From contig CAYHVY010000001.1 of assembly GCA_964360095.1 (NCBI GenBank), forward strand, positions 1 to 37,603: a DNA stretch of 37,603 nucleotides, read 5' to 3'. Numbering within the stretch: the stretch's first letter is position 1; the number at the start of each line of letters is the position of its first letter. The position numbers and the translations under genes were made by a program. The notes below the pieces were generated by a model. The model searched no databases. It had not been told where the DNA came from and was given only the letters and a program-made list of their open reading frames with translations. The stretch comes from an uncultured Candidatus Peribacteria bacterium. GTDB taxonomy: Bacteria; Patescibacteriota; Gracilibacteria; UBA1369. Below are positions 529 through 34,493 of this stretch, one piece after another.

Positions 529-1602
529 ATGAAAGCAGTAATACTCGCTGGTGGAACGGGAACCAGGCTATGGCCACTCAGTCGCGTTAGTCAGCCAAAA
601 CAGTTTCAAAAGCTCGTTACAGACCGCAGCATGCTGCAGGATGCTATTTCACGACTCAATTTTTTAAAACCGGCTGACATTTACATTTCCACCAATATTG
701 AATATGAAAAAATTGTGCGCGAACAGGCTCCGAAAATTCCTCCCGAAAATATTATTGTTGAACCGGCGCTGCGCGACACTGCGCCATGTATTGGGCTGGC
801 GGCAGTGTATATTTCTCAGAAATATCCAAATGACGTGATGGCTGTCATTTACGCGGATCATCTCATCCAAAATCAAAAAGAGCTGATAAAAAAACTGAAA
901 ATCGCGGAAAAATTGGCCAAAAAAGAGAACACGCTAAATATTATTGAAGTAAAAGCCAAATATCCAAATGTCAATCTTGGATATGTCAAAATCGGCAAAA
1001 TGCTGAAAATGATTGACGGCGCGGAAATTTTTTCCTTTGAAAAATTTATAGAAAAACCGGATCTGCAAATGGCCACAGATTTTCTGAAGTCATATAAATA
1101 TCTTTGGAATACAGGTTTATATGTATGGAAAATTGAAACAATTTTGAAAAAATTCAAAAAACATCTGCCAAAAACTTACGAATGCCTCATGAAAATAAAA
1201 AAAATAATTGGCGCTGCCGGCTTCCAAAAAGCCGTAAAACACTATTATCCACTGTGCGATAAAATTTCCATTGATTACGGCATTATGGAAAAAATACATC
1301 CAAAAGAGGTGCGCATTATTCCAGCGGAACTTGGCTGGAGCGACGTGGGAACATGGGAATCCATCTTTGACGAACTTGTAAAAAATGAAAAATCAAATCT
1401 TGTGAAAGGCAAACATATGGGGATTGACACCAAAGGCTCGCTTATTTACGGTGGTAATAAATTAATCGCGACCATTGGCGTAAAAAACCTGATTATTGTG
1501 GAAACTGATGACGCAATATTGATTTGCGACAAAAAACGCAGCAGTGAGGTAAAAAAACTGGTTGAAAAACTCACTAAAAAAAATTACAAATATTTATTAT
1601 AA
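529..1602 (+). CDS. Sugar-1-phosphate nucleotidylyltransferase, mannose-1-phosphate guanylyltransferase-like
   Basis: The N-terminal MKAVILAGGTGTRLWPLSR signature matches the ManC/CpsB NTP-transferase domain. The ATG at 529 is preferred over the ORF-track start at 508. Confidence 0.8.
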   Translation: MKAVILAGGTGTRLWPLSRVSQPKQFQKLVTDRSMLQDAISRLNFLKPADIYISTNIEYEKIVREQAPKIPPENIIVEPALRDTAPCIGLAAVYISQKYPNDVMAVIYADHLIQNQKELIKKLKIAEKLAKKENTLNIIEVKAKYPNVNLGYVKIGKMLKMIDGAEIFSFEKFIEKPDLQMATDFLKSYKYLWNTGLYVWKIETILKKFKKHLPKTYECLMKIKKIIGAAGFQKAVKHYYPLCDKISIDYGIMEKIHPKEVRIIPAELGWSDVGTWESIFDELVKNEKSNLVKGKHMGIDTKGSLIYGGNKLIATIGVKNLIIVETDDAILICDKKRSSEVKKLVEKLTKKNYKYLL

Positions 1603-1633
1603 AAATTCACCCAAAATTCAAAATTCAAAATTC
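1602..1633. repeat. Heptamer-period AAAATTC tract directly upstream of a start codon
   Basis: AAAATTC occurs at 1602-1608, followed by three perfect tandem AAAATTC units at 1613-1633. The ATG is at 1642 and no Shine-Dalgarno sequence is present. Confidence 0.7.
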
Positions 1634-2058: not shown

Positions 2059-2093
2059 AATTCCCTATTCATTTTTCATTATTCCCTATCCAC
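2059..2093. repeat. Five 7-nt units (AATTCCC TATTCAT TTTTCAT TATTCCC TATCCAC) filling the spacer before secDF
   Basis: Read directly from the sequence. The spacer runs from just after the cupin stop (2058) to 1 nt before the secDF ATG (2095). Confidence 0.6.
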
Positions 2094-2094
2094 T

Positions 2095-5000
2095 ATGCAT
2101 AAACGTCACATCCTCAAAGTCGGCATCATTATCCTGGTAACGCTCATTCTGGGCTTTATTGATTTGCCGTCAGAAAAGCAGAAAAAGCTCTTTCCGCCTA
2201 CGCCACAGGCAATCCAGGACAGCAAATATCATTTGGGTCTGGATTTGCAGGGAGGATCTCAGCTTGATTACAAAATTGACCTGCGAAAAGTTCCCGAAAA
2301 GGATCGGAAAAGCATTATTGAAGGAGTCAGTAACGTCATCAACACGCGGGTCAACGGTTTAGGCGTATCTGAACCAAATATTTATCTTTCTTCCGTCGGG
2401 GATGAACAACATCTTATTGTTGAACTCGCCGGCATAAAAGATCTGGAAGAGGCTAAAAAGGTAGTTGGGAAAACAATTCAGCTGGAATTTAAAGAGCAGC
2501 GCGGCACTGAAGATACGGAAGCCCCTAAAAGAGCAAAAAACGCGGCCCAGGCGCTTCTGGACAAAGTAAAAGCCGGTGGCAATTTTGATGTTCTGGGCAA
2601 AGAAGAGTCTCTTGGAAATCCCGGAAAAGTGACTTTTCAGGAGGTTGATTTTCAGTATAAAGATCAGGTGCCATCGGCTCTTGTAAATGACCTTTTTAGC
2701 GCAAAACCCGGAGAAATTCTTAAAAACATCATTGAAACAAGCGGTGAATACAGTATTGATGCAACAGGTCAATTAGCGCCAAGCAAAGGGCACAATGTGG
2801 TAAAATTGCTGGAAAAACGCGACCAAAAACGTGAAATAGATGAAAAACGCGAAGTAACTGTGAGTCATATTTTAGTTGCATACAAGGGCGCGGAACGGGC
2901 GGATTCCGCCGTAACGCGTACTGAAGATGAGGCCAAAAAACGCGCCGCAGAAGTTCTGGAAAAATTGCAAAAGGGTGGAAAATTTGATGAATTGGCAAAA
3001 CAATATTCGGACGACAAAAGCAATAAAGACAGGGGTGGGGCTTTAGAGCAGGCGGTTAAAGGTGAAAGCCAATACGCGAAAGAATTTGAAACCGCCGCTA
3101 TGGCATTAAAAAAAGTTGGAGATCTATCCCCTGTCACAAAAACGTCTTTTGGTTTTCATATAATCAAAGCGGATAAAATCAAAGAAGCCTTAAAGGAGAC
3201 AAGAACCGAACCGCAGGTAAAATATACGAAGATTTTTTACAGTGCGGCATCAGATCCATGGCAGGATACGGAATTAAGCGGAAAACACTTCACACACGCT
3301 GACATTCAATATGATCAGCTTTTCAATCCATATGTATCCATTCAGTTCAATGATGAAGGGGCAAAACTTTTTGAAAAACTCACTGAAAAAAATGTCGGTA
3401 AACCATTGGCCATTTTTGTTGGAGGACAGCTTATTTCTGCACCAAACGTGAATGAAAAAATCAGCGGAGGTAAAGCTCAAATAAGTGGCCGTTTCACATT
3501 GGAAGAAGCCAACAAGCTGGCACGCGACCTCAATACCGGAGCAATACCGGCCCCAATCGTCTTGGCCGGTCAATATACGATTGGAGCGACACTTGGGCAG
3601 GATGCTCTTAATAAAAGTCTTTTCGCGGGCAGTATTGGCTTTCTCCTGGTCGCTCTGTTTATGATTCTCTATTACCGTCTGCCAGGCCTGCTGGCTGTCA
3701 TCGCTCTCACGATCTACGCAATTTTAATGCTGTTCCTGATTAAAACTGCCATGCCGCTCTATTGGTCTCTCCCGATATCCGTGGCTGCATTTGTCTTTTT
3801 AGTGATGAAGATTCTTCGTTCCCGCGAATCAGGGGCCGAAAAAGCAATTGGACTTGTTCTTTCCTGTTTTGTGCTTTTCTTTCTAAGCTTCCTGCTTTCA
3901 ACACCGGTTGTAATGACATTGGCTGGTATCGCCGGCGTTGTTTTATCCATTGGTATGGCCGTGGATGCCAATATTCTTATTTTTGAAAGGATAAAAGAGG
4001 AACTTCGTGATGGACGCACTCTGAGCGCGGCCATTGAAGTTGGCTTTGACAGGGCATGGAATTCCATCCGGGATTCAAATTTTTCTTCTCTCATCACCTG
4101 CGGAATTCTTTTTTATTTTGGAAGTTCCATTATTCAGGGTTTTGCTTTTAACCTTGCGGCGGGTATTTTGGTTTCCATGTTTACAGCCATTACCATTACA
4201 AAAACCTTTATTTCCGCTCTGATAAACACAAAATTGGCCAATAACTTGTGGCTTTTTGGAACACCAAAGAAAAAAGAAAAGAAATTATTGCCGATTATTC
4301 CAAACAGAAAAACCGCCTACATTGTCTCACTGACTGTATTGGCACTGGCTCTCATTAGCATACCCGTTTTTGGGCTTAAATTGGGGCTCGACTTCACCGG
4401 AGGAACGCTGATGGAATTCAAGTTTCAAAAGGCTGTTAATGTTTCGGACATAGAAAAAGCTTTTCAGGAAAGTGTTCAAATATTAAATCAACAAAAAGAT
4501 AAAAAAACTGAGAGTAAAATTGACCCCGGAACTCCGCACATAGTTCCAAGCGAACAGGGATTTATTGTGAAAACACGCCATATCAGCTCGGAGATTCACG
4601 ATCTTTTGATTCCGGAACTTAAAAAGAAACTTGGGGCGTTTGAAGAAACACGCTTTAATACTGTAGGCCCGACTGTTGGAGAAAGTCTGCGTTGGCGCGC
4701 GACATTGGCTGTGGCGGTCGCCAGCATAATGATTGTGCTGTATGTCGCTTTTGCTTTCCGCAAAATTCCGCGTTATGTAAGTAAGTGGCGTTTTGGAACG
4801 GCCGCGATTATCGCTCTGTTGCATGATTTGGGCATCATGCTTGGGGTATACGTATATTTTGGAGTATTTTTTAACGTTGAAATTGACGCGCTTTTCATTA
4901 CAGCAATGCTGACAATTCTTGGATTTTCGGTCCATGACACCATTGTCGTTTTTGATCGTATCCGCGAGAAACTCAAATATCAGAAACATGATGAAAGTTT

Positions 5001-5241
5001 TGCTGAAATTACAAATCAGGCCGTCAATGAAACCATCGCGCGCTCCATCAACACATCTTTTTCGGTATTTCTTACCCTGCTGGCCCTGGCTATTTTTGGA
5101 GGCGAAAGCATTCGTTTCTTTGTTTTATCGCTTCTGGTGGGCATCGTGGCCGGCACGTATTCCTCCGTTTTTGTCGCAAGCCCCGTGCTTGTAGACTGGC
5201 AGGAGCATGCTAAAAAAGCGGTACACGAGAAAAAGAAGTGA
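2095..5241 (+). CDS. secDF: Fused protein-export membrane protein SecD-SecF with parvulin-type PPIase modules inserted in the SecD periplasmic P1 domain
   Basis: SecD motifs are GLDLQGGSQL, VNGLGVSEPNI and TLEEANKLARDLNTGAIPAPI, followed by 6 TM segments. SecF motif GLDFTGGT is followed by 6 more TM segments. Residues about 254-362 read as parvulin (VTVSHILVAYKG...GGKFDELAKQYSDD...GGAL...SFGFHIIKAD). Confidence 0.9.
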   Translation: MHKRHILKVGIIILVTLILGFIDLPSEKQKKLFPPTPQAIQDSKYHLGLDLQGGSQLDYKIDLRKVPEKDRKSIIEGVSNVINTRVNGLGVSEPNIYLSSVGDEQHLIVELAGIKDLEEAKKVVGKTIQLEFKEQRGTEDTEAPKRAKNAAQALLDKVKAGGNFDVLGKEESLGNPGKVTFQEVDFQYKDQVPSALVNDLFSAKPGEILKNIIETSGEYSIDATGQLAPSKGHNVVKLLEKRDQKREIDEKREVTVSHILVAYKGAERADSAVTRTEDEAKKRAAEVLEKLQKGGKFDELAKQYSDDKSNKDRGGALEQAVKGESQYAKEFETAAMALKKVGDLSPVTKTSFGFHIIKADKIKEALKETRTEPQVKYTKIFYSAASDPWQDTELSGKHFTHADIQYDQLFNPYVSIQFNDEGAKLFEKLTEKNVGKPLAIFVGGQLISAPNVNEKISGGKAQISGRFTLEEANKLARDLNTGAIPAPIVLAGQYTIGATLGQDALNKSLFAGSIGFLLVALFMILYYRLPGLLAVIALTIYAILMLFLIKTAMPLYWSLPISVAAFVFLVMKILRSRESGAEKAIGLVLSCFVLFFLSFLLSTPVVMTLAGIAGVVLSIGMAVDANILIFERIKEELRDGRTLSAAIEVGFDRAWNSIRDSNFSSLITCGILFYFGSSIIQGFAFNLAAGILVSMFTAITITKTFISALINTKLANNLWLFGTPKKKEKKLLPIIPNRKTAYIVSLTVLALALISIPVFGLKLGLDFTGGTLMEFKFQKAVNVSDIEKAFQESVQILNQQKDKKTESKIDPGTPHIVPSEQGFIVKTRHISSEIHDLLIPELKKKLGAFEETRFNTVGPTVGESLRWRATLAVAVASIMIVLYVAFAFRKIPRYVSKWRFGTAAIIALLHDLGIMLGVYVYFGVFFNVEIDALFITAMLTILGFSVHDTIVVFDRIREKLKYQKHDESFAEITNQAVNETIARSINTSFSVFLTLLALAIFGGESIRFFVLSLLVGIVAGTYSSVFVASPVLVDWQEHAKKAVHEKKK

Positions 5242-23265: not shown

Positions 23266-23300
23266 ATAATTCAAAATTTGAAATTCAAAATTAAAAATTT
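23266..23300. repeat. Five 7-nt units (ATAATTC AAAATTT GAAATTC AAAATTA AAAATTT) before the lgt start
   Basis: Read directly from the sequence. The tract ends 3 nt before the ATG at 23304. Confidence 0.7.
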
Positions 23301-23303
23301 TTA

Positions 23304-24089
23304 ATGTATCCAATCTTTCTCCAAATAGGACCGGTCACCATCTACGCGCTACAGGTGTTCATGTCCATCGGTTTTCTCATGGCTCTTCTCGTACTTAATA
23401 AATTGATTCAAAAAGACCGCGATAAATTGACTTTTATTGCCAATCATAGTTTTGGCATTTTTTTGGGAGGCTTGATAGTGTCACGACTGATTTTTGTTAT
23501 CCGAAACGTGAAAGTTTTTTTTACGCCTCCATTTCTTACTCATTTCGCGGAAATTTTTTATATTTGGGATAAAGGTCTTTCTCTTTGGGGAGGTTTACTT
23601 GGAATCATACTCATGCTCACATATTATTGCGGAAAGAAACGGCAAAATCTCCGATCATGGCTTGATATATTCGTCATAAGCGTAATGTCCGGACTTGTTT
23701 TTGGCAATATTGGAACATTTTTGGACGGCCGGAATTACGGACGTGAAACAGTGTTGCCCTGGGGAGTTCTTATGGAAAATTCACGTTACGCGGTTCCAAT
23801 CCATCCCGTGCAACTTTATGCCGTCATTTATACTCTTATTTTAACAATTTTTTTAATGAAGTTTTTAAAAAGCAATTTTGGTAAAACGGCTGGAAATACA
23901 GCTCTTATTGGCGGCACCATTTACGCGTTTTTACGTTTTTTGGAAGAATTTTTCCGCGGAGATGAAAGCAATTATTTTTTCTTTTTTCGGGAAGCTCAAA
24001 TATATGCAGCTATTGCTTTCATCGTTGGCTGTGTTTTAATGTATCGTAGAATCAAAAGTCAAAATATCCTCAAACATCAAGAAGTATGA
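23304..24089 (+). CDS. lgt: Prolipoprotein diacylglyceryl transferase
   Basis: The protein is polytopic and carries WDKGLSLWGGLLG, GRNYGRETVLPWGV and HPVQLYA motifs. Confidence 0.85.
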   Translation: MYPIFLQIGPVTIYALQVFMSIGFLMALLVLNKLIQKDRDKLTFIANHSFGIFLGGLIVSRLIFVIRNVKVFFTPPFLTHFAEIFYIWDKGLSLWGGLLGIILMLTYYCGKKRQNLRSWLDIFVISVMSGLVFGNIGTFLDGRNYGRETVLPWGVLMENSRYAVPIHPVQLYAVIYTLILTIFLMKFLKSNFGKTAGNTALIGGTIYAFLRFLEEFFRGDESNYFFFFREAQIYAAIAFIVGCVLMYRRIKSQNILKHQEV

Positions 24090-24499
24090 ACATCATAAAC
24101 ACCATATTGACATATTTTTTTGAGCCATTGCCAAGCGGCCGGTTTGAATATATGTATACCTTCATCGTCCTGGCGATTGTTATCCTCACTTTTTCTATCG
24201 CGCTTCGGCTTTATCTCAAAAGGCAAAAAGATGACAAGATCTTTAGAAAACTTTTTCGGGAATTGCCTGGAAAATTACAAATCATTAGCATCGTTCTTGC
24301 GGTATATATTCTTGCCAGGTATGAACGTATGCCATATTTATCCATGAGATTTTTGCATTACATCATTTGGGCGGTAATGCTTTATTTGCTTATAAAATAC
24401 GCAAAAATATACTTTCAAATATATCCGGCAGAAAAAAAACATCACCAAAAACAGCTTGAACTTAATAAGTATTTACCCCGGAAGATGGGAAGAAAGTAG
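24086..24499 (+). CDS. Hypothetical integral membrane protein
   Basis: It has 3-4 hydrophobic segments, and its start overlaps the lgt stop (ATGA). Confidence 0.5.
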   Translation: MNIINTILTYFFEPLPSGRFEYMYTFIVLAIVILTFSIALRLYLKRQKDDKIFRKLFRELPGKLQIISIVLAVYILARYERMPYLSMRFLHYIIWAVMLYLLIKYAKIYFQIYPAEKKHHQKQLELNKYLPRKMGRK

Positions 24500-25742: not shown

Positions 25743-26273
25743 CTATTCCATTTTAATAACCTCATATTCCACCACGCCTGATGGAATGCGGACTTTAACT
25801 TTGTCACCCTGGCGGCAATCCAGAAGCGCCGCGCCTACCGGAGATTCATTTGAAATTTTATGACCGAGAGGATCAGCTTCCGTTGAACCAACGATGGTAT
25901 ATTCTTCATTAACAGCTGATTTTTTTGACATATTTTTGACAATCACTTTTGTTCCCAACTGAACTGTAGCCATGTGGTGCTTTTCTTCAATGATTTTGGC
26001 GTATTTGACCTTTTCTTCAAGTTCAATAATACGCCCCTCCACAAAAGCCTGTTCGTTTTTGGCCTCTTCATATTCGGAGTTTTCAGAAAGATCTCCATAA
26101 GAAATGGCTTCTTTAATACGTCCCGCGACTTCGCGCCGTTTGACATTTCTAAGCTGATCCAGCTCTTCTACAAGTTTTTTTAATCCATCTTTTGTGATAA
26201 GGATGAATTTATTATCGTCAGACGCGACGGTGGTCGTTGCCCCAACTGTGGCTGTTTTTGATGCGTTAGGCAT
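25743..26273 (-). CDS. greA: Transcription elongation factor GreA
   Basis: ITKDGLKKLVEELDQL...REVAGRIKEAISYGDLSENSEYEEAK is the coiled-coil region. The C-terminal globular domain follows. Confidence 0.9.
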   Translation of the reverse strand: MPNASKTATVGATTTVASDDNKFILITKDGLKKLVEELDQLRNVKRREVAGRIKEAISYGDLSENSEYEEAKNEQAFVEGRIIELEEKVKYAKIIEEKHHMATVQLGTKVIVKNMSKKSAVNEEYTIVGSTEADPLGHKISNESPVGAALLDCRQGDKVKVRIPSGVVEYEVIKME

Positions 26274-26279
26274 GAGATT

Positions 26280-26354
26280 AATTAAGAATTAAAAATTAAG
26301 AATTGGCAATTGATTGATCATTGAAAATTGATTGTGAATTGAAAATTGTGAATT
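26280..26354. repeat. Degenerate 7-bp-period AATT tract filling the rpoD-greA spacer
   Basis: ATT anchors occur at 26281, 26288, 26295, 26302 and 26309. They then continue with phase shifts at 26313, 26320, 26327, 26331, 26338, 26345 and 26352. Confidence 0.7.
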
Positions 26355-26356
26355 GT

Positions 26357-27502
26357 TTAGGGCTTAATCCTGATACTCGTCGGGTGCTCCTTCATTTTTT
26401 GCAATACTTTGGCTTCAATTTGGCGTATTCGTTCACGCGTAACGCGAAATTCATGCCCCACTTCTTCCAGGGTGTGGCCCACGCCGTCCTTAAGACCAAA
26501 ACGCATTTCAATAATTTTGCGCTCGCGCGGGGAAAGATACTGAAGCATTTCATGGATATTCTCCTTGATCAATTGCCGATTGGTTGCCTCGGAAGGCGAA
26601 AGCGCGTCATCGTCTTCTATAAAGTCTCCGAGTTTACTGTCTTCTTCGGTGCCAACAGGAGCTTCCAGCGAAACAATATCCTGTGAAATTTTCAGAATAT
26701 GGCGAACTTTTTTCACGTCCATATCCATTTCAGCCGCAAGTTCTTCGGCCAATGGCTCACGGCCAAGTTCCTGGACCAGGCGGCGTTGGGCGTGGGTAAG
26801 CTTGTTTATGGTTTCCACCATGTGTACCGGAATGCGGATAGTGCGCGCCTGATCGGCGATGGCGCGGGTGATCGCCTGACGGATCCACCATGTGGCATAG
26901 GTAGAAAACTTGAATCCCCTTTCAGGATCAAATTTTTCCACGGCTCTGAATAAACCAATATTACCCTCCTGGATTAAGTCCAGAAAGGAAAGCCCTCTGC
27001 CAATATATTTTTTTGCGATGCTCACAACCAGACGCAGATTGGCCTCCGCCAGACGTTGTTTTGCAGTCTGATCGCCTTTTTTGATACGGCGCGCCAAATC
27101 AATTTCTTCTTTTGCGGTCAAAAGCGAAACTTTGCCTATCTCACAAAGATAGAGACGAATGGAGTCGTTAGCAATCTCCCGCAATTCTATGGATTTTGCG
27201 ACTACTTTTTTTCCTTTTACTTCCTTGACCGCGACTATTTGTTCTTCCTCTTCCACTTCCTCCGTGTGAAAAGAAATGGCATCCTTGGCATCAATGACTT
27301 CAATTCCCAAATCCAAAAAAAGACCGTAGATTTCATCAAGTAAAATAAGATCTTCTTCAATATTGGGCATCGCCTTCATCAGCTCCTGTTGAGTGACAAA
27401 GCCGTGCTCTCTGCCCTTTTTGACCAAATCCCGCACTTCTGCCGGAAACTGGCCGAGCTTGTCATCGGAAGGGTGAACAATAAATTTTTTGGTTCGGGCC
27501 AT
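26357..27502 (-). CDS. rpoD: RNA polymerase primary sigma factor
   Basis: Region 2.4 is [29 protein letters not shown] and region 4.2 is [24 protein letters not shown]. The ATG at 27502 is preferred over the TTG at 27520, which lies in the repeat tract. Confidence 0.92.
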
Positions 27503-27510
27503 GTTCTTTA

Positions 27511-27617
27511 CAATTATCAATTTTCAATTTTCAATTTACAGTTTTCAATTAATTTTCAGTTATCAATTTTCAATTTTGAATTCAATTTCTAATTACTAAT
27601 TCATAATTCATAATTAC
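27511..27617. repeat. About 15 tandem degenerate heptamers (CAATTTT-type) between the dnaG stop and the rpoD start
   Basis: The units read CAATTAT CAATTTT CAATTTT CAATTTA CAGTTTT CAATTAATTTT CAGTTAT CAATTTT CAATTTT GAATT CAATTTC TAATTAC TAATTCA TAATTCA TAATTAC. The dnaG stop codon lies in the last unit. Confidence 0.8.
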
Positions 27618-29443
27618 TTACTCAAGGCATCCAGTTCCCTGATGAAACGCCTGGATTCATCTTTTTGACCCTGTTTTTCCGTGTCTCCAATTTGATGCTG
27701 AAGAGTAAGGCGTTTTTTATTAAGCGTATTCTTGATGAGCTTGTCAAGTAGAAGCTTCATTTCACGCTCAACTGCCTCTTCACCAATTTCACCGTAAAAT
27801 TCAGAGATATACAATGAAACAAGAGTTATTTTTTGGGCTAATTCATAAGGTAAAGAAGCTCTCAGGAGGTCTACATCCCAAACGCCCAAGCCATTATACT
27901 GATCGGAAAATTGCTTGTAAATAGCTTTCATGTCACCTGCAAAGTAATCGGATGAAATTTTGTCCTTAAGCAGTAGCCCTATACGGGGATACTCAAGAAT
28001 AAAAGCAATCAACAACTCTTCCGCCTGAAATTTTTTTGATTTAGCCGCGGATGGTTCGTTTGAATCCGAAAGACCGACATGCAAACGAGCCGGATGAGTT
28101 ACGGGTAATTTAAAATTTTTCAATTCATCGTACAGCTGTTTCTCGGTAACACGAAAATCACGCGCCAAAATGCGCACATATTCATCTTTTGCAAGAGGGC
28201 TTTTGAGTGTATGTAAAAATGGAGAAAAATCCTGCAAAATCTTCCGTTTTAAGGATGCATCCTCTTGGCGCAGCGCTGTATTAGCCTCGCTTTTGCTCGG
28301 TCTGGCAGAAAAATCATCGGCGCCATGGATTGAAATTAAGCGCTTATACAGATAATCACCATATCTTTCCGCTTTTTGAATGATCAAAGATAAATCGGCG
28401 GGAGAGTGTTGGCAAAATTCGGCAATATCCTTGCCTTCTGGAAGTTCAAGAATTTTTACTTCAAAATCAAATTCCTGTGCCAGTTCAAAAGCGCGTTTTG
28501 CCGCTTCCTGACCGGCTAAATCCATATCAAAAGCAAGACACAGTTGAGCTGAAAATGGTTTTAATAACCGCAACTGCTGACTTGTTAATGCTGTTCCGGA
28601 AACAGCCGCAACATTGGTTATTCCAGCCTGGTACGCGGCAATCATATCCATATATCCTTCAACCAGAACTGCGGATTTTTGAGTTTTTATGGAGGCTTTA
28701 GTCCAGGAAAAACCATAGAGAATATTGCTTTTGTGATAAATGGCCGTCTCCGGAGAATTGAGATATTTGGGATCCTGTTCATGCGCAAGAGCGCGGCCTC
28801 CAAAAGCGACGATGCGCCCCAAAGAATCGGTAATCGGAAACATAAGCCGTCCCCTAAAACGGTCATGGATACTGTCAAGTGTAGTTTCGCGGGAAAGAGC
28901 CAAGCCTGAAGCCACGAGCAGTTTCCGGCTAAACCCTTCTTTTAAAAGCATCTTAAACGTCGCCTCATAATCATCGGGAGAAAAACCGAGACGAAAAAGT
29001 TTAATCGTCTCATCGTTCAATCCACGTCGGCGAAGATACTCCAAAACTTTTGCTCCATTTTCACTATTCCACAACTGCCATTCATAAAAAGCAGCAACCG
29101 TTTCATGAACACGGAGAAGCTGCTCTTTTTCATCCTTATCAATAGGAGATTGCAGAGCGTACTTTTTTAATTCAACACCTGTCCGCTCAGCTAAAATTTT
29201 AAGCGCATCAACAAAATCAACTCCCTCCACTTCCCGAATAAATTGAAACACATCGCCGCCCTTGTGACAGCCAAAACAATAGGCAATCCCTTTTTGCGGC
29301 GAAACAATAAAACTCGGCGTTTTTTCGGCATGAAAAGGACAAAGTCCCTTCAAATTCTGACCGATTTTCTTGAGCTGCACATACTGGCTGACAAGATCCT
29401 CTATGGATAGGCGGCTTTTGATTTCATCGCGGGCATCGGACAT
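27614..29443 (-). CDS. dnaG: DNA primase
   Basis: The zinc finger is CPFHAEKTPSFIVSPQKGIAYCFGCHKGGD and the TOPRIM motif is VLVEGYMDMIA. Confidence 0.92.
   Translation of the reverse strand: MSDARDEIKSRLSIEDLVSQYVQLKKIGQNLKGLCPFHAEKTPSFIVSPQKGIAYCFGCHKGGDVFQFIREVEGVDFVDALKILAERTGVELKKYALQSPIDKDEKEQLLRVHETVAAFYEWQLWNSENGAKVLEYLRRRGLNDETIKLFRLGFSPDDYEATFKMLLKEGFSRKLLVASGLALSRETTLDSIHDRFRGRLMFPITDSLGRIVAFGGRALAHEQDPKYLNSPETAIYHKSNILYGFSWTKASIKTQKSAVLVEGYMDMIAAYQAGITNVAAVSGTALTSQQLRLLKPFSAQLCLAFDMDLAGQEAAKRAFELAQEFDFEVKILELPEGKDIAEFCQHSPADLSLIIQKAERYGDYLYKRLISIHGADDFSARPSKSEANTALRQEDASLKRKILQDFSPFLHTLKSPLAKDEYVRILARDFRVTEKQLYDELKNFKLPVTHPARLHVGLSDSNEPSAAKSKKFQAEELLIAFILEYPRIGLLLKDKISSDYFAGDMKAIYKQFSDQYNGLGVWDVDLLRASLPYELAQKITLVSLYISEFYGEIGEEAVEREMKLLLDKLIKNTLNKKRLTLQHQIGDTEKQGQKDESRRFIRELDALSK
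28251..28308. repeat. 58-nt GC-rich repeat, copy 1, in frame inside dnaG
   Basis: It aligns without gaps to 30664-30721 at 41 of 58 positions, including an identical 15-mer TGTATTAGCCTCGCT. It encodes ARPSKSEANTALRQEDASL. Confidence 0.75.
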
Positions 29444-29450
29444 TTATGGC

Positions 29451-29478
29451 GAATTATGAATTTCGAATTTTGAATAAG
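29451..29478. repeat. Four 7-nt units (GAATTAT GAATTTC GAATTTT GAATAAG) just upstream of the dnaG start
   Basis: Read directly from the sequence. The dnaG ATG is at 29443 on the minus strand. Confidence 0.7.
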
Positions 29479-29533
29479 GGGAACCTACTATAGCAGATAA
29501 TTTCTTTAGGAGGTAATTTTAGAAAAAATTTAA

Positions 29534-30659: not shown

Positions 30660-31391
30660 TTAAAAGGACGCGCCCAAGGGGCGCGGCATTGTATTAGCCT
30701 CGCTGCGGCTCGGCCTGATAGTTGGCACAAGAAAATTACGGCACGTTAAAGCGGTAATCTTTTCAAACGGAACAGCGTTTTCTATGGAAAAAGAGCCGAT
30801 TTTTGTGCGCCGCAGTGCTTCCACATATGCGCCGCATTGCAGAATTTGACCCAGGTCATGGGCAAAACTTCTGATGTAAGTGCCGCTGCCGCAGTGTACG
30901 GAACATTCCAATGCTGGATATGAAAAATGTTGAATGTCCACGCGGAAAAAAGTAACTGTTTTGGACTTTACATCGGGAATTTGGCCTCTTCTAGCCAAAC
31001 TGTAGGCGTGTTCTCCTTTGATTTTTTGAGCGGAATAAATGGGTGGTTTTTGAATCTGCTGGCCACGAAAATGCTTTTTTAAAACTTCCTCAAGTTTTGG
31101 ACGGTCAAATATTTGTGGCTTTCCGTGGGGATAAATCGGCCCTTCGGAATCATAAGTTGCGGAAACAGCGCCAAAACTAATGGTAGCGTCATATGTTTTA
31201 TCCAGACCCTCCAGATCATGCAGAGATTTTGTGGCTTTTCCAAAGGCAAAAATCATCAATCCGCTTGCCAGAGGGTCAAGAGTTCCGGCGTAACCTATTT
31301 TTTTCATGTCAAAAAGCTTGCGAAACACCTTCACCATAAAAAACGAAGTGATCCCTTTTGGCTTGTCTATGAGAAGAAAACCTTCATCCAT
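30660..31391 (-). CDS. truB: tRNA pseudouridine-55 synthase
   Basis: GFLLIDKPKGITSF and GYAGTLDPLASGL (catalytic Asp) are present. The ATG at 31391 is preferred, because the upstream MNFEFQI of the track ORF is encoded by the heptamer tract. Confidence 0.88.
   Translation of the reverse strand: MDEGFLLIDKPKGITSFFMVKVFRKLFDMKKIGYAGTLDPLASGLMIFAFGKATKSLHDLEGLDKTYDATISFGAVSATYDSEGPIYPHGKPQIFDRPKLEEVLKKHFRGQQIQKPPIYSAQKIKGEHAYSLARRGQIPDVKSKTVTFFRVDIQHFSYPALECSVHCGSGTYIRSFAHDLGQILQCGAYVEALRRTKIGSFSIENAVPFEKITALTCRNFLVPTIRPSRSEANTMPRPLGASF
30664..30721. repeat. 58-nt GC-rich repeat, copy 2, forming the 3' end of the truB ORF
   Basis: It matches copy 1 at 41 of 58 positions, on the same strand and in the same frame. 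It encodes IRPSRSEANTMPRPLGASF, followed by the stop, and contains the hairpin CGCGCCC-aag-GGGCGCG. Confidence 0.75.
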
Positions 31392-31418
31392 AATTTGAAA
31401 TTCGAAATTCATAATTCA
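31391..31418. repeat. Four 7-nt units (TAATTTG AAATTCG AAATTCA TAATTCA) spanning the murE stop and truB start
   Basis: Read directly from the sequence. The murE TGA (31409-31411) lies inside the tract. Confidence 0.7.
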
Positions 31419-34451: not shown

Positions 34452-34493
34452 AAATTCATAATTTTTAATTTCTAATTTCTAATTACTAATCAC
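34452..34493. repeat. Six 7-nt units (AAATTCA TAATTTT TAATTTC TAATTTC TAATTAC TAATCAC) between the hpf stop and the ligase-like start
   Basis: Read directly from the sequence. The hpf TGA (34490-34492) lies in the last unit. Confidence 0.75.

Follow-up and report, generated by a model that had tools for sequence, protein, structure and literature searches.

Heptamer tracts with an AATT core before start codons in a Candidatus Peribacteria genome without Shine-Dalgarno use

INTRODUCTION

In the genome of an uncultured Candidatus Peribacteria bacterium, the spacer between dnaG and rpoD is taken up by a run of AATT-containing heptamers that reaches almost to the rpoD start codon. This raises the questions of what kind of element such a run is, whether it recurs elsewhere in the genome, and whether it serves the gene behind it or has simply accumulated there. 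An earlier note, made from the letters of the window (the whole stretch of 37,603 nucleotides analyzed here), had listed eight such tracts and offered four readings of them, namely, A/U-rich unstructured leaders for translation initiation; promoter, UP-like, or curved-DNA elements; binding arrays for a protein; and slippage-prone tracts of variable copy number. Overall, its interpretation was partly supported.

RESULTS

The dnaG-rpoD tract and the other tracts of the window

The features of the window are collected in Table 1. Pfam identities were obtained for DnaG, TruB, Mur ligase, HPF, Wzy_C, Sigma70, GreA, and LGT. The genes found behind tracts were rpoD, dnaG, greA, truB, lgt, secDF, the cupin gene, and the Wzy_C gene, and among the annotated genes, which are those of the window only, no common functional theme was apparent downstream of the tracts.

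Table 1. Positions of the genes, heptamer tracts, and promoter element in the window
Feature	Position	Strand	Evidence or remark
Cupin gene leader tract, AAAATTC x3-4	1602..1633	+	ATG of cupin / mannose-6-phosphate-isomerase-like gene (1642-2058) follows 9 nt downstream
Period-7 tract, degenerate (TATTCAT type), with a single exact AATT	2059..2093	+	Precedes SecDF gene (2095-5241)
lgt leader tract, 5 AATT	23266..23300	+	Ends 4 nt before ATG at 23304
greA	25743..26273	-	Pfam GreA
rpoD-greA spacer tract, fills spacer	26280..26354	-	Start-proximal AATTCTT AATTTTT AATTCTT AATT, then 6 nt and ATG
rpoD (primary sigma factor)	26357..27502	-	Pfam Sigma70; true start is ATG at 27502, MARTKK conserved in relatives
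dnaG-rpoD tract	27512..27618	-	16 heptad slots: 14 exact AATT and 2 AACT; three phase blocks
dnaG (primase)	27614..29443	-	Pfam
dnaG leader tract	29451..29477	-	Sense CTTATTC AAAATTC GAAATTC ATAATTC, then GCCATAA, then ATG
Extended -10 box TGcTATAGT, upstream of dnaG tract	29487..29492	-	Sequence comparison
Tract AATTATG AATTTCG AATTTCA AATT-ATG	31391..31418	-	Spans Mur ligase TGA stop and truB start
Tract of AATTAGA units, minority orientation	34452..34493	-	Between HPF stop and start of Wzy_C-family gene (34451)

The dnaG-rpoD spacer, which had been described as a degenerate period-7 array of about 15 units, is such an array, with 16 heptad slots counted. Its successive AATT motifs are spaced by 7, 7, 7, 7, 5, 7, 7, 14, 4, 14, 7, 7, and 7 nt. 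Read in the sense of rpoD, the 5' part runs TAAGT/AATTATG/AATTATG/AATTAGT/AATTAGA/AATTG/AATTCAA/AATTGAA/AATTGATAACTGAA/AATT/AATTGAAAACTGTA, and the 3' part, after AATTGAAAACTGTA, runs AATTGAA/AATTGAA/AATTGAT/AATT-GTAAAGAAC-ATG. The dnaG stop codon (TAA, 27614-27616) overlaps the first TAATT of the tract, and the rpoD ATG (27500-27502) lies 9 nt past its end. The tract is in the minority orientation, which is the one richer in G, and carries upstream ATG and TTG triplets. Its predicted folding energy was -9.3 kcal/mol compared with -9.4 in shuffles, and a search of the window against Rfam gave a tRNA as the sole match, with no known RNA family at the tract. A stable RNA structure was rejected as an explanation, both on this result and because leaders with a tract are less folded than those without (see below).

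Tandem Repeats Finder (TRF) detected period-7 arrays at every other spacer that the earlier note had listed. Seven of its eight tracts hold 3 to 14 phased AATT motifs; the remaining one, at 2059-2093, has the period of 7 but a single exact AATT. The open reading frame (ORF) at 27389-27592 and the N-terminal extensions MIIVKN and MNFEFQI, all called spurious, were present as described. The tract at 31391-31418 is in the minority orientation and contains two in-frame ATGs, and the MNFEFQI extension of truB, being in frame, may represent a real start.

Heptamer tracts occur throughout the genome

The assembly (genome label G000) comprises 1.0 Mb in 118 contigs, of which the window is contig C1. 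Gene calls were simple longest-ORF calls (927 ORFs, 90% of the genome), with starts checked against homologues inside the window only. Across the whole genome, intergenic AATT pairs at distances of 7, 14, and 21 bp numbered 195, 138, and 76, respectively, against a background of about 20, and AATT was about 8 times more frequent at these distances in intergenic DNA than at other spacings. The lag-7 AATT signal was nearly flat in coding DNA. AATT was the top tetramer by far when all 256 were compared for lag-7 excess (195 versus 24), and 84 tracts with at least three phased AATT units were found compared with 0 to 5 in block shuffles. TRF, which makes no assumption about sequence, returned period 7 as the commonest (160 arrays, versus 46 for period 6 and 49 for period 8), and AATT was present in the consensus of 93 of these 160. 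The tracts are mainly intergenic: 9 of the 84 fell inside called ORFs, several of these being spurious 5' extensions. Array lengths ranged from 3 to 16 units with no preferred number. With lag-7 AATT far above background in intergenic DNA across the genome, the original observation stands, and the heptamer tracts are confirmed as a real, genome-wide feature of about 80 gene spacers.

The units are of the type AATTNNN, for example, CATAATT, CAAAATT, and TTTAATT. In the TRF arrays, whose detection did not depend on AATT, neighboring units mismatched at 3 to 6% for the four core positions and at 33%, 49%, and 20% for the three spacer positions, and conservation of AATT exceeded that of the spacer bases 5- to 10-fold. 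Exchanges of A for T or T for A affected 17% of A/T spacer positions and 1% of core positions, and AT-biased mutation was rejected on this ground as the cause of the conserved core.

Tracts are anchored to start codons and prefer operon-internal genes

Tracts lay between codirectional genes in 58 of 84 cases, and after merging of the 84 into 78, a start codon was found within 40 nt of 59. With refined starts, the distance from the last AATT to the start codon had a median of 7 nt (interquartile range [IQR], 5 to 9), bearing out the claim that the tracts adjoin start codons, whereas the tract followed the upstream stop codon at a median of 19 nt (IQR, -2 to 54; p=0.005 for start versus stop anchoring). 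The AATT start positions were phased relative to the start codon at -12/-11, -19/-18, and -26/-25. Of 530 starts located behind a codirectional gene, 54 had a tract, and of 292 in divergent spacers, 8 did (p=5e-5); the corresponding figures for the set with constrained starts were 27/211 and 7/179. Operon-internal genes were thus about four times as likely as first genes to be preceded by a tract.

The tracts also had a preferred orientation. Spacer triplets counted on the sense strand comprised 26 CAT versus 8 ATG, 22 CAA versus 4 TTG, 11 TAT versus 2 ATA, and 11 TCT versus 5 AGA. C exceeded G on this strand in 37 arrays and G exceeded C in 13 (p=9e-4), and it held 54 start triplets, compared with 117 for the antisense strand. 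The G-richer orientation, with ATG or TTG triplets upstream, is that of about one-quarter of the arrays, including the one before rpoD.

The genome does not use Shine-Dalgarno sequences, and tract leaders are weakly folded

The earlier note had remarked that the tract spacers have no obvious Shine-Dalgarno (SD) sequence. This is true but not specific to tracts, since it holds genome-wide: GGAG, GAGG, or AGGA was found between -20 and -4 at 16 of 395 well-constrained starts, compared with 24 in a control window further upstream, and G made up 6 to 12% of the bases in the -20 to -4 region. This is a genome without any SD use at all. The statement that the tracts replace conventional leaders was accordingly an overstatement, since no gene here has a conventional SD leader. 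The assembly contains no 16S rRNA gene; in three relatives of the same family the 3' end of the 16S rRNA reads GGAUCACCUCCUUUCU, which keeps the CCUCC anti-SD. AAUU is unable to pair with GGAUCACCUCCUUUCU, so the tracts are not SD sites. Judging from these relatives, the anti-SD is probably present in the host but unused, a combination known for Bacteroidota.

The 45-nt leaders with a tract had a predicted folding energy of -0.94 kcal/mol versus -3.62 kcal/mol for those without (p=6e-8), and their G content was 6.7% versus 13.8%. Among the four options of the earlier note, the A/U-rich unstructured initiation leader is the best supported, as the tracts lie downstream of recognizable promoters and before starts, are G-poor, and fold at -0.9 versus -3.6 kcal/mol.

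Promoter-like sequences lie upstream of the tracts

Where tracts precede first genes, a canonical pair resembling TTGACA and TATAAT was recognized upstream of the tract (contigs C6, C27, C29, and C67), for instance, TTGACA-16-TAATAT about 25 nt before the tract on contig C6. The extended -10 box of dnaG, TGcTATAGT, is conserved as TGtTATAAT in the relative G001, and TATAAC/TATAAG boxes are located 13 to 14 nt before the dnaG ATG in G019 and G020. The leader from the -10 box to the dnaG ATG measures about 13 nt in G019 and G020, 28 nt with two heptamer-like units in G001, and 43 nt with four to five units in G000. Because the extended -10 box sits upstream of the dnaG tract, this tract would be inside the 5' untranslated region (UTR), and more generally a recognizable promoter upstream of a tract implies that the tract is part of the transcribed leader. 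From these arrangements we infer that the tracts lie within transcribed 5' UTRs.

A region-wide scan for -35/-10 consensus pairs at 16- to 18-bp spacing gave 31 matches versus 27.3 expected, no excess that would speak for promoter arrays; one match of 9/12 to the promoter consensus was found inside the rpoD tract. A promoter role would predict enrichment at first genes, and the tracts show the opposite, which argues against it. As to curvature, three steps of 7 bp, turning about 240 degrees each, would be expected to cancel A-tract bends, which disfavors the curved-DNA reading. The promoter, UP-like, and curved-DNA options thus found no support from the scan, from the position of promoters upstream, or from tracts being four times rarer at first genes. 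TATAATT was found as the last unit in 8 of 60 terminal versus 3 of 80 internal units (p=0.055), and a class of genes without tracts has TA[AT]AAT exactly at -12, a leaderless geometry.

Tracts are patchily distributed among relatives and stable within one population

The orthologous dnaG-rpoD spacer is 3 to 30 nt long in G001, G019, G020, G006, G021, and G032 and in four metagenome contigs. Because these spacers are so short, the tract of about 100 nt is a derived, lineage-specific expansion. In G001 this spacer contains five CCAACAA-type heptamers. At the greA spacer a tract was present both in G000 (AATTCTT/AATTTTT) and in G001 of the same genus (AATTAAT x4), and only two or three ATTATTA-like units were present in G020 and G021. 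Only G000 has the lgt tract, which is missing from the corresponding spacer of G001, G019, G020, and G021, and G020 has a tract of its own before a different gene. No period-7 arrays were found in the syntenic 19- to 23-kb stretches of G019 and G021. Among 40 relatives compared, only G001, G006, G020, and G031 had many four-unit arrays. In 301 genomes sampled evenly from the phylum, 68 (23%) had at least one five-unit array and a reversed control pattern was much rarer; G000 had the highest number, 23 arrays, and is the most extreme case of the sample. Start-proximal tracts were observed again in G001 (8 of 11) and G031 (7 of 9), with lineage-preferred units (NTTAATT in G001 and CGTAATT in G031), and one tract of G031 is followed by GGGGAGGG, a normal GGAGG. 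Beyond the phylum, AATT arrays were found in Cyanobacteria, Bacteroidota, Ignavibacteria, Planctomycetota, and Acidobacteriota among the matches listed from 185,579 species genomes, in a scan that required AATT and so cannot show AATT to be special. A universal start-anchored signal was rejected, since the AATT arrays at 120 loci of other phyla adjoin stops as often as starts.

The tracts at 26280-26354 and 23266-23300 were identical in three assemblies from the Hainich H52 groundwater well that are 99.5 to 99.9% identical to the window, a comparison made on consensus contigs, for two tracts, in replicate samples of one well. One replicate contig breaks inside the rpoD tract. Of the suggestion that the tracts are slippage-prone with variable copy number, the variation between genera was seen, but variation within the population was not, for these two tracts in the three samples.

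G000 has lost mutS and mutL. Loss of mismatch repair (MMR) was nevertheless rejected as the cause of the tracts, since MMR-proficient G001, G006, G020, and G031 carry tracts while MutS-less G025, G035, and G038 carry none. The only S1 domains seen in G000 were those of PNPase and NusA, and relatives have a four-domain bS1; the neighbor of the G001 bS1 gene corresponds to a contig end in G000, so absence of bS1 is not claimable, and a missing ribosomal protein S1 was set aside as a cause. The assembly encodes no cold-shock-domain protein, which led us to discard cold-shock proteins as tract binders.

DISCUSSION

We tentatively favor the reading, at close to but under an even chance, that the tracts are slippage-born heptamer repeats kept as unstructured, SD-independent leaders. 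They would be lineage-specific heptanucleotide simple-sequence repeats (SSRs) of the form (AATT-N3)n that arose by replication slippage inside short AT-rich leaders. The probable seed is a TAATT-type motif already located about 12 nt before many start codons; genes that lack a tract likewise show TAATT enrichment around -15 to -12. The tracts now occupy the last 20 to 100 nt of the 5' leader or intercistron spacer and stop about 7 nt before the start. The statistical pattern suggests a selection filter for RNA ahead of the start that is poor in G, poor in start triplets, and unfolded; tract mRNA would also be rich in stop triplets, and the tracts may have been kept or at least tolerated on these terms. 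Because the genome has no SD pairing, the start codon is probably found via the local absence of RNA structure, and an unfolded tract might serve for ribosome loading or reinitiation before operon-internal genes. If the tracts do help ribosomes to start, they offer a clue to the translation of internal cistrons in genomes without SD use. Against this leader reading, unstructured AU-rich RNA explains neither the 7-nt period nor the conservation of AATT, about one-quarter of the arrays, that of rpoD included, are G-richer with upstream ATG or TTG, and a normal GGAGG follows one G031 tract. Moreover, G019 and G021 manage the same genes with 3- to 30-nt spacers and no tracts, which means that tracts are not needed for these genes.

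The same tract-less relatives, together with the patchy distribution, speak for neutral microsatellites, that is, functionless slippage products that pile up in AT-rich untranslated DNA and whose anchoring is mere tolerance. Consistent with this alternative, which we regard as rather unlikely, are the way in which shared spacers of G000 and G001 have come to differ in the sequence and number of their units, the lack of start anchoring in AATT arrays of other phyla, the loss of mutS and mutL in G000, and the standing of heptamers as the commonest long SSRs in bacteria (Mrazek 2007, as cited in PMC4679880). However, neutral decay should hit the seven positions alike, and mismatch was 3 to 6% in the core versus 20 to 49% in the spacer, with flips at 1% versus 17%. 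Anchoring to starts rather than stops, strand bias, and internal-cistron preference call for selection, if only as a filter, tract sites are retained across genera although their units change in sequence, and MMR-proficient relatives carry tracts too. Were the tracts neutral, they would still show slippage remodeling leaders and misleading gene callers in reduced genomes. Strand bias would equally be expected of promoters, and sense-strand units such as CATAATT, TATAATT, and CAAAATT do resemble -10 elements, which could act in tandem as internal promoters for short-leader or leaderless mRNAs or as sigma-dependent pause sites. The codirectional enrichment fits internal promoters, TATAATT tends to be the last unit (p=0.055), and TA[AT]AAT stands at -12 in the non-tract gene class. 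This proposal seems improbable to us, since the critical A (hexamer position 2, unit N2) falls at the most variable position with 49% mismatch, tract hexamers lie at -15/-14 and not at -12, the terminal TATAAT scatters from 4 to 13 nt before the ATG, canonical promoters lie upstream of tracts, the scan gave no excess, and one-quarter of the arrays are reversed.

A 4-nt core held constant, 3-nt spacers that are free to vary, and a strict period are together the signature of a periodic binding array, in which a multimeric RNA- or DNA-binding protein would read AAUU/AATT every 7 nt and control translation, mRNA stability, or DNA structure of about 80 genes. The palindromic core is the same on either strand, so both orientations could work, and the lineage-specific on/off distribution fits gain or loss of a trans factor. 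HutP sites, which are UAG-N4 repeats and also have period 7, and TRAP sites, which are GAG/UAG-N2-3 repeats, similarly combine a short conserved core with a fixed period and free spacer bases, but they are single sites in one leader with a cognate protein, compared with about 80 sites here and no known protein. The constrained AATT core and free spacers thus agree with the protein-binding option of the earlier note; however, no candidate protein was found when S1 and cold-shock domains were sought, the downstream genes share no theme, preferred units differ between lineages, and arrays of 3 to 16 units show no preferred number, and we give this option a small chance of being right. It seems likewise quite unlikely that the AATT-phased heptads are a true cis-signal, with AAUU read every 7 nt by the ribosome, by RNA polymerase/sigma, or by a multimeric RNA-binding protein as an SD-independent entry or reinitiation site for operon-internal genes; were this so, it would account for the recurrence of one core-plus-spacer design in 23% of the sampled Patescibacteria and in other SD-poor phyla (Cyanobacteria and Bacteroidota). 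Finally, the tracts might be phase-variation (contingency) loci in which frequent changes of copy number switch or tune expression, as at hmw1A/hmw2A of Haemophilus influenzae with their phase-variable 7-bp repeats in the promoter/leader (PMC8262952, PMC12721329). Both consist of tandem heptamers between promoter and start codon, and assembly breaks and N gaps coincide with tracts. The hmw repeats, however, are perfect, polymorphic in copy number within the population, and upstream of adhesin genes, while the AATT tracts are degenerate, which suppresses slippage, and two of them were identical in three samples at 99.5 to 99.9% identity; the window genes behind tracts are housekeeping genes (rpoD, dnaG, greA, truB, lgt, and secDF) rather than surface or virulence genes. 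The tracts are therefore not hmw-type members, and phase variation is very improbable.

Any model, the favored leader reading included, has to accommodate a conserved palindromic AATT core with free spacers, arrays that stop at a constant 7 nt from the start, a sense strand poor in G and in start triplets, enrichment before operon-internal genes, and a probable 5' UTR location in a genome without SD use. The earlier note was right that such spacers have no described function, but the kind of element had already been described (MacGregor 2015, PMC4679880; Rehm 2015, PMC4692102). The AATT tracts are a well-defined new example of a known, unexplained class of heptamer repeats, and what is new is the degenerate core-plus-spacer design. 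In the literature, we found no description of heptamer repeats in candidate-phyla-radiation bacteria (Patescibacteria).

The closest analogue is the TAACTGA repeats, which are intergenic heptamer direct repeats of marine Beggiatoaceae and some Cyanobacteria and Bacteroidetes (MacGregor 2015, PMC4679880). In the Beggiatoaceae, 169 sets were reported, mostly forward, directly before starts, and mostly without a ribosome-binding site; some are in ribosomal-protein operons, and the distribution is patchy (PMC4679880). Both systems have many sets per genome (169 there and about 80 here) of 2 to 6 or more tandem 7-nt units that are mostly intergenic, oriented, start-proximal, and usually without SD, with some overlapping the upstream stop; in both, the downstream genes have no functional theme and the distribution is patchy. 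They differ in that the unit here is an AATT core plus three free bases and not a single set heptamer, the gap between array and start is about 7 nt and not 1 nt, and the host is a 1-Mb member of the candidate phyla radiation without any SD use. The operon-internal preference and the sequence evidence for a 5' UTR location go beyond what is described for TAACTGA.

More broadly, the recognition of heptamers as the most over-represented long SSRs of bacteria goes back to the survey of heptanucleotide long SSRs in prokaryotes by Mrazek (2007, as cited in PMC4679880), and slippage is the origin generally proposed for heptamer repeats (Mrazek 2007, via PMC4679880; PMC4692102). Like the long SSRs of prokaryotes, for which polymerase slippage has been proposed, the AATT tracts show over-representation of period 7, an intergenic location, and recurrence at the same spacers in relatives with variable length and sequence; a tandem 7-bp excess, intergenic position, and between-genome variation at the same spacer were all found here. 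Other heptamer repeats are GGGAATC of Xanthomonas and GGGGA(C/T)T of Nostoc (Rehm 2015, PMC4692102). These are G-rich, quadruplex-capable, and nearer to the end of the upstream ORF than to the next start (PMC4692102), in contrast to the AATT tracts, which are A/T-rich, G-poor, unstructured, and start-anchored. The STRR heptamers of Calothrix/Anabaena are further prokaryotic heptanucleotide repeats.

Translation-start signals in the genome

Shine-Dalgarno (SD) sequences were found between -20 and -4 at 4% of the 395 constrained starts in the whole genome under study, a frequency below that of the control window. The genome makes essentially no use of SD sequences. The canonical CCUCC anti-SD tail of the 16S rRNA is kept in same-family relatives (L175-L177). 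Across the whole genome, a subset of 14 genes has TA[AT]AAT beginning exactly at -12 from the start codon, where the background count is about 2; this position corresponds to the geometry of leaderless mRNAs. In-frame TAA is likewise enriched at -15 and -12.

Ribosomal protein bS1 was not found in the assembly, where true absence is indistinguishable from an assembly gap (start of contig C60; C67:1-410); the gene neighbouring bS1 in the same-genus relative G001 matches a contig end in the genome under study. In relatives, bS1 is a four-domain form of roughly 420 aa (L178, L179). The assembly likewise yielded no cold-shock-domain protein.

The top promoter-like site of the region is located inside dnaG, about 390 nt before rpoD begins, and could serve as an internal promoter for rpoD of the sort present in other bacteria (see the table).

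Heptamer arrays, their neighbours and their relatives

The relative G031, which belongs to a different family, has a (CGTAATT)n tract (L160 743-790) followed by a classical SD sequence, GGGGAGGG, and then by ATG, indicating that the tracts can coexist with SD-led initiation. The 7-nt period is more general than the AATT core, since two heptamer arrays of G001 lack that core. Very long AATT-core heptamer arrays were also observed in other phyla, for example AATTGGG in about 26 copies in a cyanobacterium.

N gaps in scaffolds and the ends of contigs are often located right beside heptamer tracts, which seem to interrupt assemblies made from short reads.

Promoter-like site, assembly breaks beside heptamer tracts, and heptamer arrays in other genomes
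Feature	Location	Strand	Description
Promoter-like site	window 27893-27921	-	TTTACA-17-TATAAT, 11/12; inside dnaG
Gap or contig end beside tract	C38:1271-1402; C4:19705-19899; C4:22984-23166; C92:1-25; C47:7810-7848; L155:1
Non-AATT array	L151 3180-3207 (G001)		CCAACAA x4; before rpoD
Non-AATT array	L151 4340-4357 (G001)		AAACCTT x2.6; before greA
Very long AATT-core arrays, other phyla	L069 5005-5189 (Oscillatoriales MAG); L138 2857-2993; L149 835-901

Mismatch-repair genes and population variation

The mutS and mutL genes look truly deleted from the genome under study. In G001, mutL-mutS (L159, contig C33) adjoins two genes whose orthologues lie on contig C37 of the genome under study, where a mutL remnant comprising only the last 25 codons (CPRGRPTIITLSSEELKKRFGRNYK*) was identified outside the window (C37:5495-5656), beside a tRNA-like sequence and with no assembly gap there. 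The MutS_V domain was detected in 37 of 41 relatives but not in this genome.

Comparison of the window with L157, a 99.9% identical locus of the same population from another sample, revealed a 23-nt indel at 24332-24366, which falls within ORF 24086-24499 and gives a product of 116 aa instead of 137 aa.
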